DNA of 64,000 nucleotides from Methanobacteriota archaeon (GTDB lineage: Archaea; Halobacteriota; Bog-38; Methanoflorentales; Methanoflorentaceae): positions 1,280,001 through 1,344,000 of the forward strand of contig OY970393.1 in NCBI GenBank assembly GCA_963720465.1. The letters are read 5' to 3'. Below the pieces are notes generated by a model. It did no database searches and was not told where the DNA came from. It saw nothing but the letters and a program-made list of their open reading frames with translations. The translations under genes and the position numbers were made by a program. Each line of letters begins with the position of its first letter. Within the stretch, counting starts at the first letter, position 1. Positions 36,640-42,679 of the stretch are shown here, one piece after another.

Positions 36640-37716
36640 ATGCGCTCTTGTAGAATGATGTCAGATAAGTTAGACGGCATGCGGAACTTGCTTGAGCGCC
36701 TGTCAAATGCCCACGGCGTTTCCGGGCACGAAGGGAGCTCCCGCGACATACTCACGCACGAACTCACGCCCTACGTCGATGAGATCAAGATTGACGCGTT
36801 CGGCAATCTGATCGCCACAAAATCAGGAGAAGGACCTTCCGTAATGCTTTCTGCGCACACGGATGAGGTAGGCCTTTCCGCCAAGTACATTGACGAAAAT
36901 GGGTTCATCTACTTCATCGGTATCGGCGGTTGGTTCGACCAAACGCTGTTAAACCAGCGCGTGCGACTCCACGGAACAAAAGGCGATATTCCGGGAGTGA
37001 TCGGTTCGAAGCCTCCACATATTCTCGAGGAGGACGAAAAGAAAAAACCAATCCCGATAAAGGACATGTTTATCGACATCGGTGCCACGAGCGCCGAGGA
37101 CGTCGAAGGCCTTGGCGTGAGAATCGGCACGCCTATTACAATCGATCGCCAGTTTACTCCGCTTTCGAACAACTTCGTTACGGGAAAGGCGCTCGACGAT
37201 CGGGCCGGATGCGCGATGATGATCGAGGCCATGAAACGAACCAAGGCGACGACCGCCGTGTTCGCGGTCGGTTCGACGCAAGAGGAGGTCGGCTTGAAGG
37301 GTGCCAAAACGGCATCATTTGGGCTGAATCCCGACGTTGCCATCGCCACAGAGACCAACATAGCGGGGGACCACCCAGGCATCGAAAAGAAGATGGCGCA
37401 CTTGGAGCTCGGCAAGGGCCCCTCTGTCACCGTCGTCGACGGGGGTGGGCGTGGCCTCATCACCCCCGACTCGGTGCTTCGCTGGATCGAAGGGACGGCT
37501 GAGAAGGCGCGGATCGCGTACCAGCGCGACGTCAGCTCAGGCGGCACCACAGACGCAACGGCGATCAACCTCACGCGGGCGGGGGTCCCCGCCGGCGTCG
37601 TCAGCGTCGTCACGCGATACCTCCATACCCCCGTCGAGGTGCTCAACCTGGAAGATCTCGACGACGCCGCCGAACTGGTCGCCCGCATGCTCGAGACCGT
37701 TGCGGACTACTTTTGA
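36640..37716 (+). CDS. M42 family (TET/FrvX) aminopeptidase
   Basis: GVSGHE, AHTDEVG, GKALDDR, QEEVGL.GA, GGTTDA, RYLHTP; start may be ~36655-36679. Confidence 0.95.
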   Translation: MRSCRMMSDKLDGMRNLLERLSNAHGVSGHEGSSRDILTHELTPYVDEIKIDAFGNLIATKSGEGPSVMLSAHTDEVGLSAKYIDENGFIYFIGIGGWFDQTLLNQRVRLHGTKGDIPGVIGSKPPHILEEDEKKKPIPIKDMFIDIGATSAEDVEGLGVRIGTPITIDRQFTPLSNNFVTGKALDDRAGCAMMIEAMKRTKATTAVFAVGSTQEEVGLKGAKTASFGLNPDVAIATETNIAGDHPGIEKKMAHLELGKGPSVTVVDGGGRGLITPDSVLRWIEGTAEKARIAYQRDVSSGGTTDATAINLTRAGVPAGVVSVVTRYLHTPVEVLNLEDLDDAAELVARMLETVADYF

Positions 37717-37761
37717 CGCTCCAAAGCGTTCAACGGGGCCGAAACTCGCGCGCGTGAGAGC

Positions 37762-37770
37762 TTTTATATA
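37762..37770 (+). promoter_or_regulatory. TATA box of the cimA-ilvB-ilvN operon
   Basis: TTTTATATA with purine-rich BRE-like GAGAG upstream; implies a transcription start just before GTG 37798. Confidence 0.65.
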
Positions 37771-37797
37771 GTTACGCCTTCCATTGAGAGCAAGGAA

Positions 37798-37827
37798 GTG
37801 ACTACCGTGAGGGATCGCTTTATTTAA
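37798..37827 (+). other. Leader [12 protein letters not shown] overlapping the cimA 5' end (candidate first segment of a +1 frameshifted gene)
   Basis: GTG ACT ACC GTG AGG GAT CGC TTT ATT TAA; cimA frame is +1 relative to it. Confidence 0.5.
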
Positions 37828-39295
37828 CGACATTAAGTTTTTCGACACGACGCTGCGCGATGGAGAGCAAACCCCTGGTGTGTCGCTCACTGCCGAGAAG
37901 AAACTGTGGATTGCTAAGGCCCTAGACAAACTCGGCGTGGACGTTATCGAAGCGGGATCCGCGGTCACGTCGGAAGGCGAGCGAACCGCCATCAAAGCGG
38001 TCGCCCATGAAGGATTGCGCCCCGAGATATGCAGCTTCTCGCGCGCCCTTCGGGGGGATATCGACTACTGCCTCGAATGCGACGTCGACTCGGTGCACCT
38101 CGTCGTGCCCGTGTCGGATTTGCACATCGAAAAAAAACTGCGGAAGGATCGCGACGCCGTGCTGCGCATGGCCGTGGATACGACGGAATACGCCACTGAG
38201 CACGGACTCATAGTGGAACTCAGTGCCGAAGACGCGTCACGAGCGGACGGCGATTTTCTGCGCGAGTTCTACCGTCAAGGCGTCGCCGCAGGCGCTAAGC
38301 GGCTCTGCTACTGCGACACTGTTGGTGTGCTCATCCCCGATCGCACAGCCGCACAGTTTGCTGGCCTCGCGGCGATAGCACCACTAAGCATCCATTGCCA
38401 CGACGATTTTGGCCTCGCAACGGCGAATTCCATCGCGGCCCTAGGTGCCGGCGCGACGCAGGTGCACGTGACGGTGAACGGTCTAGGTGAGCGTGCAGGA
38501 AACGCGTCGCTCGAAGAGCTCGTGATGACGCTCGAGTCATTGTATGGCTATACGACGCGCATCAAGACGACCGAGCTCTACCCCATTTCGAGGCTCGTGA
38601 GCAGGCTTACGGGCGTGCCCGTTGCCCAGAACAAACCCATTGTCGGAGAGAACGCATTTACGCACGAGTCAGGCATCCACACCCACGGGCTGCTGGCAGA
38701 TACACGGACGTACGAGCCGATCACCCCCGAGATGGTAGGACGAGAGCGGCGGATTGTGCTCGGAAAACACGCAGGCAGCGCGTCGGTGCACCTCGCGCTG
38801 AAGGAGCTCGGTCTCGACGCGGACGATGAGCAACTGAGCGATATACTGAAACGAATCAAGGAGCTGGGCGACAAGGGAAAACGCGTTACCGACGCTGACC
38901 TACAAGCCATTGCCGATGCGGTGCTCGAGATCAATCGCGAAGCGCGCATAAAGCTGCAAGAGCTGACGGTCGTGTCGGGAAACATCGTTACCCCGACGTC
39001 GTCAATCAAGCTCTCGGTCGACGATCAAGAGGTCGTCGAAGCGGGAATCGGTCTCGGGCCGGTTGACGCCGCGATAAACGCGTTAAGAAAGGCGATAGGA
39101 AAGCTTGCGGACATAACGCTCGAGGAGTACCACGTTGATGCCATCACCGGCGGCACCGACGCACTGGTCGAGGTGTGGGTGAAGCTCAGCCGAGACGGTC
39201 ACGTCATCACAGCGCGCGGCGCGCGCGCCGACATCATCATAGCGTCAGTTGAAGCGGTCATTGAAGGCGTAAACAGGTTACTAACGTTAAAATGA
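37814..39295 (+). CDS. cimA: (R)-citramalate synthase (IPMS family); no canonical in-frame start
   Basis: [46 protein letters not shown], LeuA-type regulatory domain [13 protein letters not shown]; upstream of ilvBN. Confidence 0.85.
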
Positions 39296-39308: not shown

Positions 39309-40982
39309 ATGAACCTGAGCGGTGCCAAGGCACTTATGAAAAGTCTCGAATGCGAACACGTGGATACGATTTTCGGCATCCCTGGAGGCGTCGTCATACC
39401 CATCTACGACGAACTCTTTAATCAAGATGCCATTACGCACTACCTCGTGCGCCACGAACAAGCAGCCGCCCACGCGGCGGATGGCTACGCACGAGCAACC
39501 GGGAAAGTAGGTGTGTGCATGGCTACCTCCGGTCCCGGAGCCACGAACCTCGTCACGGGAATCGCGACCGCCTACATGGATAGCGTGCCCCTCGTCGCGC
39601 TCACGGGTCAGGTGACCACTGATCTCATCGGCAACGACGCCTTTCAAGAGGCCAATATTACGGGCATCACACTCCCGATCACGAAGCACAGCTACTTGGT
39701 TCACGAAGCGAGCGAGATTCCACAGACGATAAAAGAGGCATTTCATATCGCATCCACCGGTCGACCAGGCCCCGTCTTGGTCGATATCCCAAAAGACGTG
39801 CAGACGATGACTGCCCGGTTTGAGTATCCGAAAAAGGTGCACCTGCCCGGGTATCAGCCGACCTACGAAGGACACCCCGGTCAGATCAAGCGCGCGGCGA
39901 AGGCTATTACCGAGGCTCACCGCCCCGTAATCTACGTCGGGGGCGGCGCCAAGATCAGCGGGGCTTCCGAAGAAGTCCGTGCGCTCGCCGAAACTATCGT
40001 GGCGCCTGTGACGATGACGCTTATGGGCATGGGAACATTGCCCGCTGAACATCCACTGTCGCTGGGGATGCTCGGCATGCACGGAACAAAGTACGCGAAC
40101 TACGCCGTTACCGAATCAGACCTGATCATCGCGATCGGTGCGCGCTTCGACGATCGCGTAACGGGCAAAATCGCGAGCTTTGCCCCCAACGCGAAAATCA
40201 TTCACATCGACATCGATCCAGCCGAGATCGGCAAGAACGTCAGAGTCGACATACCGATCGTCGGCGACGTGAAGCGGGTGCTCCAAAAACTGATCCCGCT
40301 TCTCAAGGATACGCGCACAAAAGAGTGGATGGAAAAGGTGCAAACGTGGAAGCGCGAGTACCCGCTTGAATTCGGCGAGACAGGCTTAAAGCCACAGTAC
40401 ATCGTACGAGAGATAAGCAGACTGTGCCCAGATGCGGTCGTGTGCACCGAAGTCGGGCAACATCAGATGTGGGCTGCGCAATACTTTAGCCACCGCCACC
40501 CGCAAAACTTCATCTCTTCCGGAGGCTTGGGAACGATGGGGTACGGGTTCCCCGCGTCCATCGGAGCGAAGATCGGTCGGCCCGACGAGACTGTCTTTGA
40601 CCTTGCCGGTGACGGGAGCTTCACCATGAACTGCCAAGAGCTTGCCACAGCAGTCGCCTACGACGTCCAGGTCAAGGTTGCGATCTTCAATAACGGCTAC
40701 CTGGGTATGGTAAGGCAATGGCAAGAGCTATTCTACGACCGTCGGTACTCCCAGACGAAGCTCTCCGAGATCAACTTCGTGAAGCTCGCCGACGCGTTCG
40801 GCGCTCACGGAATACGCGTGGACTCGCCGAGCGAAGTAGCGCCCGCCATCGAAGAGGCGCTTGCGGTGCCAAAGCCTGTAATCATCGACTTCAGAATCGA
40901 ACCAGAGGAGTGCGTATTCCCCATGGTTCCAGCAGGAGCGGCGCTTAACGAAATAATCGATGCAAAGAACGGGAGGGTGTAG
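39309..40982 (+). CDS. ilvB: Acetolactate synthase large subunit
   Basis: [41 protein letters not shown]. Confidence 0.97.
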
Positions 40983-40985
40983 CGG

Positions 40986-41486
40986 ATGAAACACACCGTA
41001 TCTGTCCTCGTTCAAAATAAGCCCGGCGTGCTCGCGCGAACCGCCGGTCTTTTCAGCAGGCGAGGCTACAACATCGAGAGCCTGACCGTCGGCGTTACCG
41101 AAAACGAAGCCGTTTCGCGTATGACGATCGTTGTGGCCGGCGACGATACCGTGGTCGAACAAGTCACCAAGCAGCTCAACAAGCTCATCGAGGTCATCAA
41201 GGTAAGCGATCTCACCAAAGAGTCGTACGTGGACCGAGAGCTGGTGCTCATAAAAGTCACTGCCGACAGCTCAAATCGTGCAGAGATTATGCAGATCGTC
41301 AACATCTTCCGGGCGCGAATCGTCGACGTGGCGCCCAAGAGCCTCATCATCGAGGTAACTGGTGATGAGGGAAAACTGGAGGCGCTTATTGGTATGCTCA
41401 AACAATTCGGCATCAAGGAGATCGTAAGGACGGGCACGCTAGCTCTAGGGCGAGGACCTAAGGTGATACAAAGCGGCAAAGGCTAG
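40986..41486 (+). CDS. ilvN: Acetolactate synthase small (regulatory) subunit
   Basis: [38 protein letters not shown]. Confidence 0.97.
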
Positions 41487-41692: not shown

Positions 41693-42679
41693 ATGGTTCA
41701 AATGTTTTATAATGAAGACGCTGACCTGAAACATCTAAGCGACAAGAAAATCGCAATCATCGGTTACGGCAGCCAGGGACACGCCCAAGCACAAAACCTC
41801 AAGGACTCGGGACTAGATGTTCTCATCGGTCTGCGCAAGGGGGGATCGTGGGATCAGGCGCTAAAAGACGGTTTTGAAGTGCTCAGCGTCGCAGAGGCGG
41901 CAAATCGCGGAGACATCGTGCAACTGCTCCTGCCCGACGAACGCCAGGCGGCTGTGTATAAGGCTGAAATTGAACCGCAGCTCCAAGAGGGGAACGTGCT
42001 ATCATTTTCCCACGGCTTCAACATTCACTACAACCAGATCGTTCCCCCGGCATATGTGGACGTATTTATGGTTGCGCCTAAAGGTCCAGGTCACCTCGTA
42101 CGGCGCATCTACACCCAAGGTGAGGGCGTCCCAGCACTGCTGGCCGTGTACCAAGACTACACGGGTAACGCGTTCCAGACGGCGCTCGCGTATGCCAAGG
42201 GCATCGGCGCCACGCGAGCCGGCGTGCTAGAGACGTCGTTTAAAGAGGAAACGGAGACCGACCTCTTCGGGGAACAAGCCGTTCTCTGCGGCGGAACCAC
42301 TGCACTCATCAAAGCCGGCTTTGAAACGCTCGTCGAAGCAGGCTACAAGCCTGAAATCGCGTATTTCGAGTGTCTGCACGAATTGAAGCTCATCGTCGAC
42401 CTTATCCACGAAGGCGGGCTCTCGTGGATGCGCCATTCAATCAGTGACACAGCAGAATACGGCGATCTCACTAGAGGTGAGCGCATTATCACCAATGCGA
42501 CACGCGAAGCCATGAAGGGGCTGCTCAAGGACATTCAAACGGGAGAGTTCGCACGCGAATGGATACTTGAGAATCAAGCCCACCGCCCCGTGTATAACGC
42601 GCTCACCCAACGAGAGCGGGAGCACCCCATAGAAACGGTAGGCGCAAAGCTTCGCGCGATGATGACGTGGCTCAAGTGA
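41693..42679 (+). CDS. ilvC: Ketol-acid reductoisomerase
   Basis: [40 protein letters not shown]. Confidence 0.97.

Follow-up and report, generated by a model that had tools for sequence, protein, structure and literature searches.

A short out-of-frame leader with an isoleucine or leucine codon overlaps archaeal cimA and leuA: a candidate amino-acid sensor, probably acting by +1 ribosomal frameshifting

The 5' end of cimA and its overlapping leader

In the current analysis we have examined the 5' end of a putative citramalate synthase gene (cimA) encoded in a 64,000-nucleotide stretch of an archaeal genome, positions 1,280,001 to 1,344,000 of contig OY970393.1, which is referred to here as the window. 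The genome of the window (G000; the window is G000:C1:1280001-1344000) is a single contig of 2.31 Mb with a marker completeness of 91%. The layout of this 5' end, as judged from the sequence, suggests a switch responsive to amino acids that has not been described before, with +1 ribosomal frameshifting as its probable mechanism.

The cimA frame is open from 37811 to 39295 on the plus strand (494 residues, stop at 39293-39295) and is closed upstream by a TGA at 37808-37810. After this TGA the frame reads GGG ATC GCT TTA TTT AAC GAC ATT AAG TTT TTC GAC ACG ACG CTG CGC GAT GGA GAG CAA. It has no ATG, GTG or TTG ahead of the catalytic motif D-T-T-L-R-D-G-E-Q, which forms residues 12-20 of the open frame and is invariant in an alignment of nine sequences; the earliest such codon is the GTG at 37880, giving an open reading frame (ORF) of 37880-39295. 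A short ORF, GTG ACT ACC GTG AGG GAT CGC TTT ATT TAA (37798-37827), overlaps this region in the frame one base upstream of cimA and translates as VTTVRDRFI followed by the stop. Its sole isoleucine codon (37822-37824) is the final sense codon. The first-pass annotation of this DNA had described the enzyme frame without an ordinary start after the TGA, the short ORF ending in an isoleucine codon and the TATA box upstream of it, and all these statements on the sequence hold. The features of the region, all on the plus strand, are as follows (nt, nucleotides; SD, Shine-Dalgarno).

37762-37770, plus strand: TATA-like box TTTTATATA, 28 nt before 37798; presumed archaeal promoter of a leader-cimA-ilvBNC transcript
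37794-37801, plus strand: putative SD-like element GGAAGTGA, 5 nt upstream of GTG 37807; includes the first GTG (37798-37800)
37807-37827, plus strand: leader mini-ORF GTG AGG GAT CGC TTT ATT TAA, translating as MRDRFI and stop; the alternative start GTG 37798 gives MTTVRDRFI and stop
37808-37810, plus strand: TGA of the cimA frame, formed in most lineages by the leader start codon and a following A
37809-37816, plus strand: internal SD-like element GAGGGATC, within the leader and ending 2 nt before TTT; candidate stimulator of a +1 shift
37814-37816, plus strand: candidate near-cognate start codon ATC of the cimA frame; relatives in NCBI are annotated from this codon, as M-A-L-F
37819-37825, plus strand: proposed shift site TTT ATT T, with P-site codon TTT 37819-37821 and sensor isoleucine codon ATT 37822-37824; after the slip the P site would hold TTA 37820-37822 and the A site TTT 37823-37825
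37825-37827, plus strand: leader stop TAA, immediately after the sensor codon
37823-39295, plus strand: cimA-like coding frame, counted from the first codon after the proposed shift to the stop
39309-40982, plus strand: ilvB (TIGR00118, 869 bits, above the cut-off)
40986-41486, plus strand: ilvN (TIGR00119, 232 bits, above the cut-off)
41693-42679, plus strand: ilvC (TIGR00465, 480 bits, above the cut-off)

The leader had been taken to start, nearly leaderless, at GTG 37798. The start is more probably the second GTG at 37807, since GGAAGTGA is situated 5 nt before it and since a sister-genus genome (G018) lacks the first GTG: its leader reads ATG AGG GAT TGT TTT ATT TAA, with GCG at the place of GTG 37798. 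As GGAAGTGA lies upstream of 37807, the mRNA need not be leaderless. This element is complementary to the 3' end of the genome's own 16S rRNA (...GGAUCACCUCCU) and falls inside a block that is invariant among 12 same-genus loci. Matches of the GGTGAT type are found 3-4 nt before the leader ATG in other lineages, and a T/A box comparable to that at 37762 occurs at an equal distance in the same-genus and sister-genus loci.

Citramalate synthase catalyses the opening step in the synthesis of isoleucine from pyruvate. The protein encoded by the cimA frame belongs to the LeuA/CimA/homocitrate synthase family by profile (NF002085, 643.7 bits against a cut-off of 517; TIGR02090, 540.3 bits against a cut-off of 484.75), and PF00682 and PF08502 are present on its relatives. 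Close relatives are named (R)- or D-citramalate synthase by NCBI and JGI, and some NCBI records say 2-isopropylmalate synthase. Searches of NCBIfam and PDB do not separate CimA from LeuA, the top families being equal for the window protein and for a 48%-identical paralogue in the same genome, which is referred to here as leuA. The neighbours of the paralogue (DUF1614, TatD, NYN) are uninformative on this assignment. In a table row of PMC8305020, as far as the accessible part of that source goes, MJ1392 is listed as CimA and MJ1195 as LeuA.

An extra base in a T run, introduced by assembly or sequencing, or a gene in decay would give a similar picture; the genome is a single contig of 91% marker completeness, in which a homopolymer error would look alike. 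The region 37601-38200 was compared with four contig sets, two of DNA runs belonging to separate studies and two of metatranscriptomes, the contigs being informative on the letters and not on transcript ends, strand or levels. These four sets show substitutions only and not a single inserted or deleted letter, and no difference is listed within 37789-37830; the indel restoring one frame, which the first-pass annotation had named as fatal to its idea, is absent from all of them. Among the 12 same-genus loci, moreover, 37794-37830 has no variable column although TTA makes up just 6% of the leucine codons of the genome, and variation at the third positions of cimA codons sets in at 37831. The same relation of frames recurs in dozens of independent assemblies from other families and phyla, and the 494-codon frame is intact with orthologues of 92-98% identity. 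An error or a pseudogene is thereby practically refuted.

From their spacing alone, cimA appears to be co-transcribed with ilvB, ilvN and ilvC. The gene upstream of cimA, encoding an aminopeptidase, ends at 37716, and a terminator-like hairpin CTCGCGCGCGTGAG is situated at 37745-37758, between the end of this gene and the cimA promoter, where it is followed by the T-rich TATA region.

Leaders of cimA and leuA in other archaea

All the 31 genomes searched (that of the window and 30 relatives) encode an orthologue of cimA, and the 5' ends were read at 20 loci. Eighty named loci came from a scan that took a single genome for each species, so that 100 loci were available in total, with the catalytic motif located in 99. 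The leader was scored in each frame as [RCYLWH][FI]I lying 12-72 nt upstream of the catalytic motif. The counts given in this section include related genomes and are not independent observations.

The leader is identical in all the 12 same-genus loci. Four other families have [AG]TG ... GAT NNN [TA]TT ATT in the same frame relation. The isoleucine motif is found in the frame that needs a +1 shift at 65 of the 99 loci, as against four in the enzyme frame and three in the third frame. The 65 loci belong to Methanosarcinales, Methanomicrobiales, Methanocellales-like families and Bathyarchaeia, with one record of Nitrososphaeria, and include Methanosarcinaceae, Methanoperedens, Methanothrix, Methanoregula, Methanolinea, Methanospirillum and Methanoculleus. 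Within the same set the isoleucine leader is absent from Methanobacteriales, Methanophagales, Archaeoglobi and Hadarchaeales. The leaders take the forms M-R-D-[RCY]-[FI]-I, M-S-E-C-F-I, M-G-[YND]-[CR]-F-I and similar, with M-x-[DENY]-[RCY]-[FI]-I as the general form. Thus the first-pass expectation that an alignment would reveal a conserved out-of-frame leader is borne out at about two thirds of the loci; its further element, a stop right after the isoleucine codon, is not universal, for the stop follows by 0-3 codons in most lineages and by up to about 14 in some Methanosarcinaceae.

Loci with the leader commonly lack an ordinary start of the enzyme. A canonical start at least four codons before the catalytic motif is missing from the enzyme frame at 39 of the 65 leader-bearing loci as against 3 of the 34 leaderless ones; with a wider window for the leader motif the figures are 39 of 70 and 3 of 29 (Fisher p=3e-5, a value that overstates the significance as kin are not independent). 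The three start-less leaderless loci are L026, which has a variant leader, and the ANME-2-like L041 and L043. Ordinary in-frame starts in orthologues, which had been named as an observation that would speak against the proposal, are present in part of the sample: two genomes, G023 and G027, have an in-frame ATG and no leader. The arrangement known from prfB, in which frames overlap and the downstream one lies at +1 and has no start of its own, is found in the window and in many leader-bearing loci.

The gene calls in the databases reflect this 5' end. Among the 120 best database relatives, 29 begin downstream of the catalytic motif, one of them at LRDGEQ, and four begin at most three residues before it; the typical shortened call is of 471 residues and begins at the GTG homologous to 37880. 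The first-pass annotation had mentioned Methanosarcina CimA entries beginning at MRDGEQ, and truncated entries of this kind do exist. A further 15 of the 120 begin as M[ATVI]L[FL], the ATY codon (ATT or ATC) being taken as the start.

Some loci depart from the common layout in ways that are recorded here as observations. L201 (G091) differs from L013 (G018) of the same genus by two extra bases before the leader and by G for A after the GTG; this change removes the TGA and puts an upstream GTG in the enzyme frame (MEVTLPWGIALF...), and the leader VGDRFI, followed by the stop, is kept. Closely related species can therefore differ in whether the enzyme frame has a start. In four ANME-2-like loci (L041, L042, L043 and L046) the enzyme frame reads R-G-I-[RH]-I-T-D-T-T-[DG]-T-I-R-F-L-D-T-T, with a second D-T-T and no isoleucine leader; a canonical in-frame start is absent from L041 and L043 and is found only far upstream in L042 and L046. 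The 5' ends of these four look like two frames fused by a one-base insertion. The Methanosarcina-type loci L044 and L045 have ATA at the place of the leader ATG of sister species and CTG as the codon before AGG, and neither leader nor cimA has a canonical start; their 5' untranslated region is apparently long, with promoter-like T/A boxes 50-100 nt upstream.

The leuA paralogue of the same genome carries a leader of the same kind in which leucine replaces isoleucine. Its 5' region reads ATG CAC TCG AGG GAT CGT TTT CTT ... in the frame that needs a +1 shift, that is M-H-S-R-D-R-F-L. The complete leader (L002/L124, G000:C1:412790-412860) is MHSRDRFLHQFENEQ followed by a stop, with leucine at the sensor place, and this stop overlaps the in-frame ATG of leuA itself. 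The 5' regions of leuA were collected from the phylum (loci L103-L200), with the catalytic motif located in 87 of 88. The motif [RCYLWH][FL]L occurs in the +1-needing frame at 55 of these 87 loci and in the other frames at two and one, and the isoleucine motif is found at three of the 87. For cimA, in the wider window, the isoleucine motif is found at 66 of 99 loci and the leucine motif at nine, which is background (control frames 12 and 13). The leaders of 12 genomes read by eye have isoleucine in cimA and leucine in leuA, with valine preceding the leucine in G028.

The leucine codons used in the leuA leaders are CTT, TTA, CTA and CTC. As several synonymous codons are used, it is the amino-acid meaning that is kept and not the letters, which argues that the leader frame is translated. 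The leucine pattern occurs in 14 of 18 families, among which f4, with one match (1 of 12), and f10, with two (2 of 9), appear to be chance cases. An enzyme frame without a start is found at 23 of the 56 leader-bearing leuA loci and at none of the 31 others; it is seen in 9 of 10 genomes of f2, 8 of 10 of f9 and 3 of 4 of f3, and the three of f3 also lack an in-frame ATY. Two other paralogues of the family in G000 have plain ATG starts and no leader. On these grounds a conserved, amino-acid-specific leader overlapping both cimA and leuA is held to be very likely real.

The leuA leaders of families f1 and f5 (L124-L129; L144, L155, L158 and L159) keep H-Q-F-[DE/N] after the leucine codons, and the overlapping residues of the enzyme frame differ; this end of the leuA leader may be of importance, either through its peptide or through additional codons. 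Substitutions between the leuA sensor and its ATG within the genus, read by eye, point both ways on which frame is selected.

A search of the whole genome with the pattern AGGGATYNYYTT gave 14 matches as against six for the reversed control, and only those of cimA and leuA stand in a leader context. The match at G000:C1:452918 (minus strand), which translates as R-D-R-F-H-H, is not followed by an enzyme-like frame and was judged to be chance. Three further matches are copies of an element of about 50 nt, at G000:C1:786091-786160 (plus strand), 2097483-2097582 (minus strand) and 910476-910545 (plus strand). This element, GGGGTGAA.AGA.CTCC, has a hairpin CCCTGC...GCAGGG and a T-rich tail, and it matched the leader pattern by chance.

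A proposed +1 shift and other readings of the leader

We propose that the 5' end of cimA may sense an amino acid by a single codon and pass the signal on through a programmed +1 ribosomal frameshift. Of the explanations considered this one fits best, and we regard it as evenly poised between right and wrong. Ribosomes would start at GTG 37807, aided by GGAAGTGA, and translate M-R-D-R-F, which would leave tRNA-Phe on TTT and ATT in the A site. With Ile-tRNA plentiful, ATT would be read, TAA would come next, the hexapeptide would be released and that ribosome would make no enzyme. With Ile-tRNA scarce, the ribosome would wait, and GAGGGATC, paired to the 16S rRNA 3' end at 2-3 nt behind the P-site codon, would strain the complex. 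The tRNA-Phe would then slip by one base, from TTT to TTA, with the first two base pairs kept, and TTT 37823-37825 would be read next. The predicted product of the slip is the full citramalate synthase of 495 residues. The output of enzyme would rise as isoleucine falls, and the paralogue leuA would use the same device with a leucine codon.

The codons of the proposed site bear on such a slip. TTTATTT is the commonest context of cimA (27 loci), and the cimA leader contexts have TTT or ATT before ATT or ATC. In the table of contexts the sensor is preceded by TTT, CTT or ATT; CTG, CTA and TTA (4 rows) are just scattered single rows, and TTC is found in three single rows only. In the leuA contexts TTT TTA C (21 loci), CTT CTT C/T (12) and TTT CTT C (3), the P-site tRNA can re-pair at +1 cognately or with a G-U pair. 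The site [TA]TT ATY is conserved in cimA, where ATT makes up 29% of the isoleucine codons in long open frames and would be decoded slowly under isoleucine limitation. The internal element is a candidate stimulator. The duplex of GAGGGATC with the 16S 3' end GGAUCACCUCCU has a predicted energy of -11.5 kcal/mol, which is equalled by 0.3% of 20,000 random genomic 12-mers, and the leuA leader has the same internal element at -11.8 kcal/mol. Values in other lineages range from -4.4 to -10.6 kcal/mol, and the element is not universal. Just after the sensor, CGA alternates with TGA in Methanosarcinaceae; TGA is a stop in the leader frame and the change is synonymous in the cimA frame, so that the enzyme frame is the selected one directly after the sensor.

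The first-pass annotation had put forward an isoleucine-sensing out-of-frame leader that gates cimA by such a shift. The leader half of this idea is sustained by the isoleucine kept in the leader frame of cimA (65/99) and the leucine kept in that of leuA (55/87), and the frameshift half stays a proposal. It had also offered, as alternatives, initiation at ATC 37814 or at ATT 37832. The second of these is rejected: relatives have ATC, GTC or ATA at the place of ATT 37832, and a start there, or at the Leu or Phe just before the D, would cut the first strand. The first has gained support.

In this alternative CimA starts at the near-cognate ATC 37814 (ATT elsewhere) and the mini-ORF is a separate leader that competes with the weak start or feeds it, with no frameshift. 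For the covariation of start and ATY, 104 loci were examined, of which 69 bear the leader. Three codons ahead of the sensor the enzyme frame has ATT or ATC at all the 40 start-less leader-bearing cimA loci and at 16 with a start. It is missing in only 13 loci, every one of which has a canonical in-frame start (mostly a GTG in ATGAGTG), and no locus lacks both. The ATY is thus lost just where a canonical start exists. The start-less Bathyarchaeia vary the G of GATC (TAT, AAT) and keep AT[CT], a pattern that an SD-like element explains less well. The occurrence of ATA in Methanoperedens and of ACG in family f20, where Methanothrix has ATG, suggests that non-canonical starts are in use. At L044 and L045, with no canonical start in either frame, some non-canonical start is needed, and the 15 database relatives annotated from ATY agree with such a start.

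The evidence on this near-cognate start is not all in its favour. The codon at 37814 lies 12 nt from the upstream SD-like match and 1 nt from the internal one, as against the 5 nt of GTG 37807. The out-of-frame isoleucine of the cimA leaders and leucine of the leuA leaders are left unexplained by it, and in f3 leuA is start-less with no ATY at all (3 of 4 genomes). Those leuA leaders that are followed by a canonical ATG likewise retain GGGATY; the conservation of this sequence therefore needs no role as a start codon, and the conserved GATY can be read as part of the internal SD-like element. The direction of control would be wrong as well. A ribosome paused at codon 6, the sensor, would cover both GTG 37807 and ATC 37814, so that starvation would lower the enzyme, and among simple models only the shift would raise it. 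We consider the ATC start less likely than the shift but a serious competitor to it, and well ahead of the RNA-level explanation taken up below. It may also coexist with the frameshift as a source of low basal output beside the inducible route.

The covariation just described weighs most heavily against the proposed frameshift, and the varied codons and several further observations weigh against it too. In many lineages translation from an in-frame start farther upstream includes G-I-x-L-F, and the variable codon of the leader encodes A/V/I/F/T in the enzyme frame, a conservative set, as against R/C/Y/L in the leader frame. Because of this conservative residue and of the translated G-I-x-L-F, reading of the enzyme frame may begin before the point where the shift is proposed. 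After the slip the isoleucine version TTT ATT N places TTA under tRNA-Phe, with two pairs kept and a wobble mismatch, and the ATT ATT of Methanosarcinaceae re-pairs poorly. The SD-like element is weak in several lineages, as in Methanoregula (-4.4 kcal/mol). A search of G000 with ARAGORN gave 37 tRNAs and missed tRNA-Ile(GAU), tRNA-Leu(UAA) and tRNA-Leu(UAG), which is probably a limit of detection for intron-bearing or otherwise overlooked archaeal tRNAs. Finally, the sequences themselves show the layout, its conservation, the exchange of isoleucine for leucine, the lack of indels and the complementarity to the rRNA; that the leader is translated, that ribosomes pause and slip there, that output responds in the stated direction and that the SD-like elements take part are steps that we infer from them.

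The leader could also be a true isoleucine sensor that acts on the RNA, a paused ribosome blocking decay from the 5' end or altering termination at the T5 run of 37838-37842, with the enzyme made from a weak or unknown initiation site. Archaeal RNA polymerase stops at oligo-T. The specificity of the sensor codon would be explained equally well, the T5 run lies 14 nt past the sensor, and T runs recur there in many leader-bearing lineages. This run (T7 in the leuA of this genome) encodes Phe-Phe/Phe-Leu just before D-T-T, residues that are conserved in the first strand, so that the T run has a coding role as well. The missing in-frame starts and the always slippery NTT codon before the sensor are left unexplained by an effect on the RNA. 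The region 37794-37900, moreover, folds no better than chance (z=+0.38; 123 of 200 shuffles fold as well). We hold this explanation to be improbable. An attenuator with mutually exclusive terminator and antiterminator hairpins was rejected on the same folding value, there being no terminator-like site within the leader and no Rfam family at the leader, with two chance-level matches elsewhere (E=3 and E=8.8).

Relation to known systems and significance

In prfB, encoding release factor 2, a slow A-site codon, an NTT P-site codon that re-pairs at +1 and an internal SD-like element act together, and the full-length protein is the product of the shift. The proposed device would resemble it in the short upstream frame, a slow A-site codon, the NTT codon in the P site, the element a few nucleotides behind it and an output that would go up when the sensed factor is scarce; the CTT CTT T/C of leuA would use the same kind of tRNA-Leu slip. 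It differs from prfB in that the sensed molecule would be a charged tRNA for Ile or Leu and not a release factor, the pause would fall on a sense codon, the target is a biosynthetic enzyme and not the decoding factor itself, and the host is an archaeon. The shift would also take place five codons from the start, and the isoleucine version would re-pair with a wobble mismatch.

As in the leader-peptide attenuation of bacterial ilv and leu operons, a short leader has codons for the end product of the pathway (isoleucine in cimA, leucine in leuA), and paralogous pathways differ in their regulatory codons. Unlike in those operons, there are one or two sensor codons and not runs of them, no alternative hairpins or terminator were found in the leader, and the leader overlaps the start of the enzyme out of frame, with a coupling that is proposed to be translational recoding and not transcription termination. 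The device, as proposed, belongs neither with prfB nor with these leaders. The gene for IF3, infC, is an essential gene read from a conserved near-cognate AUU/AUC start, with discrimination by IF3 itself. This likeness bears only on the ATC start discussed above, and infC has no overlapping amino-acid-specific leader.

Shifts at hungry codons (Gallant) and at the Ty1 site CUU_AGG_C, both described in the accessible part of a 2016 review of frameshifting (PMC5009743), are likewise +1 events driven by a slow A-site codon for which the aminoacyl-tRNA is limiting. The E. coli cases of hungry codons were studied as errors, their natural role being left open in that part of the review (PMC5009743), and the Ty1 shift is constitutive and depends on a rare tRNA; the device proposed here would be, in contrast, a conserved and selected regulator of a cellular biosynthetic gene. 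The same source reports 15% frameshifting at CCC_UGA in the E. coli pheL leader (PMC5009743), which is also a shift at the last sense codon of the leader peptide of an amino-acid operon. That shift is called 'apparently incidental' in a cited title, and coupling to an enzyme is not mentioned in the part of the review available, whereas here the enzyme frame would be entered, often where it has no other start. The review also mentions an archaeal magnesium chelatase (PMC5009743). For Archaea, a single report of a programmed frameshift, of the -1 kind, is acknowledged in the accessible part of a review of archaeal recoding from 2021 (PMC8211752).

No description of the cimA/leuA leader was found in the literature searched. 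The words citramalate and isopropylmalate do not occur in the accessible text of PMC5009743, nor do these words, leucine or isoleucine in that of PMC8211752. In the available text of PMC8305020 citramalate and isopropylmalate occur in the one table row and one reference only. The main text, as available, of a Ribo-seq paper on M. mazei (PMC11456600) is without cimA or leuA and without the words citramalate and isopropylmalate, and its lists of upstream ORFs may bear on the present claim.

Taken across lineages, we tentatively suggest, at a little short of even confidence, a family of archaeal recoding switches in at least two phyla (families of Halobacteriota, Bathyarchaeia and one Nitrososphaeria record), in which one sense codon in a leader of 6-16 codons would read the charge of one tRNA and send the ribosome at +1 into the first enzyme of the pathway, with isoleucine for cimA and leucine for leuA. 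As the device is common to both paralogues and to lineages of at least two phyla, it may be as old as the split of cimA and leuA.

Whatever the mechanism, the gene models that databases give for these enzymes are frequently in error, as the 29 of 120 records that start past the catalytic motif and the 15 that assume ATT or ATC indicate. If the frameshift is true, archaeal cellular genes would have their first example of regulation by a +1 shift, and an amino-acid supply set directly by the efficiency of frameshifting would be seen in nature for the first time. 'Hungry-codon' frameshifting, so far mainly studied as error, would become a selected regulatory principle, and the leader would offer a compact and portable amino-acid-responsive switch. 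The translational control of amino-acid biosynthesis in archaea is largely unknown, which gives these leaders their relevance. Should the frameshift hold, methanogens and Bathyarchaeia would tune the synthesis of isoleucine and leucine by a one-codon sensor that joins the logic of bacterial leader peptides to the mechanics of prfB.

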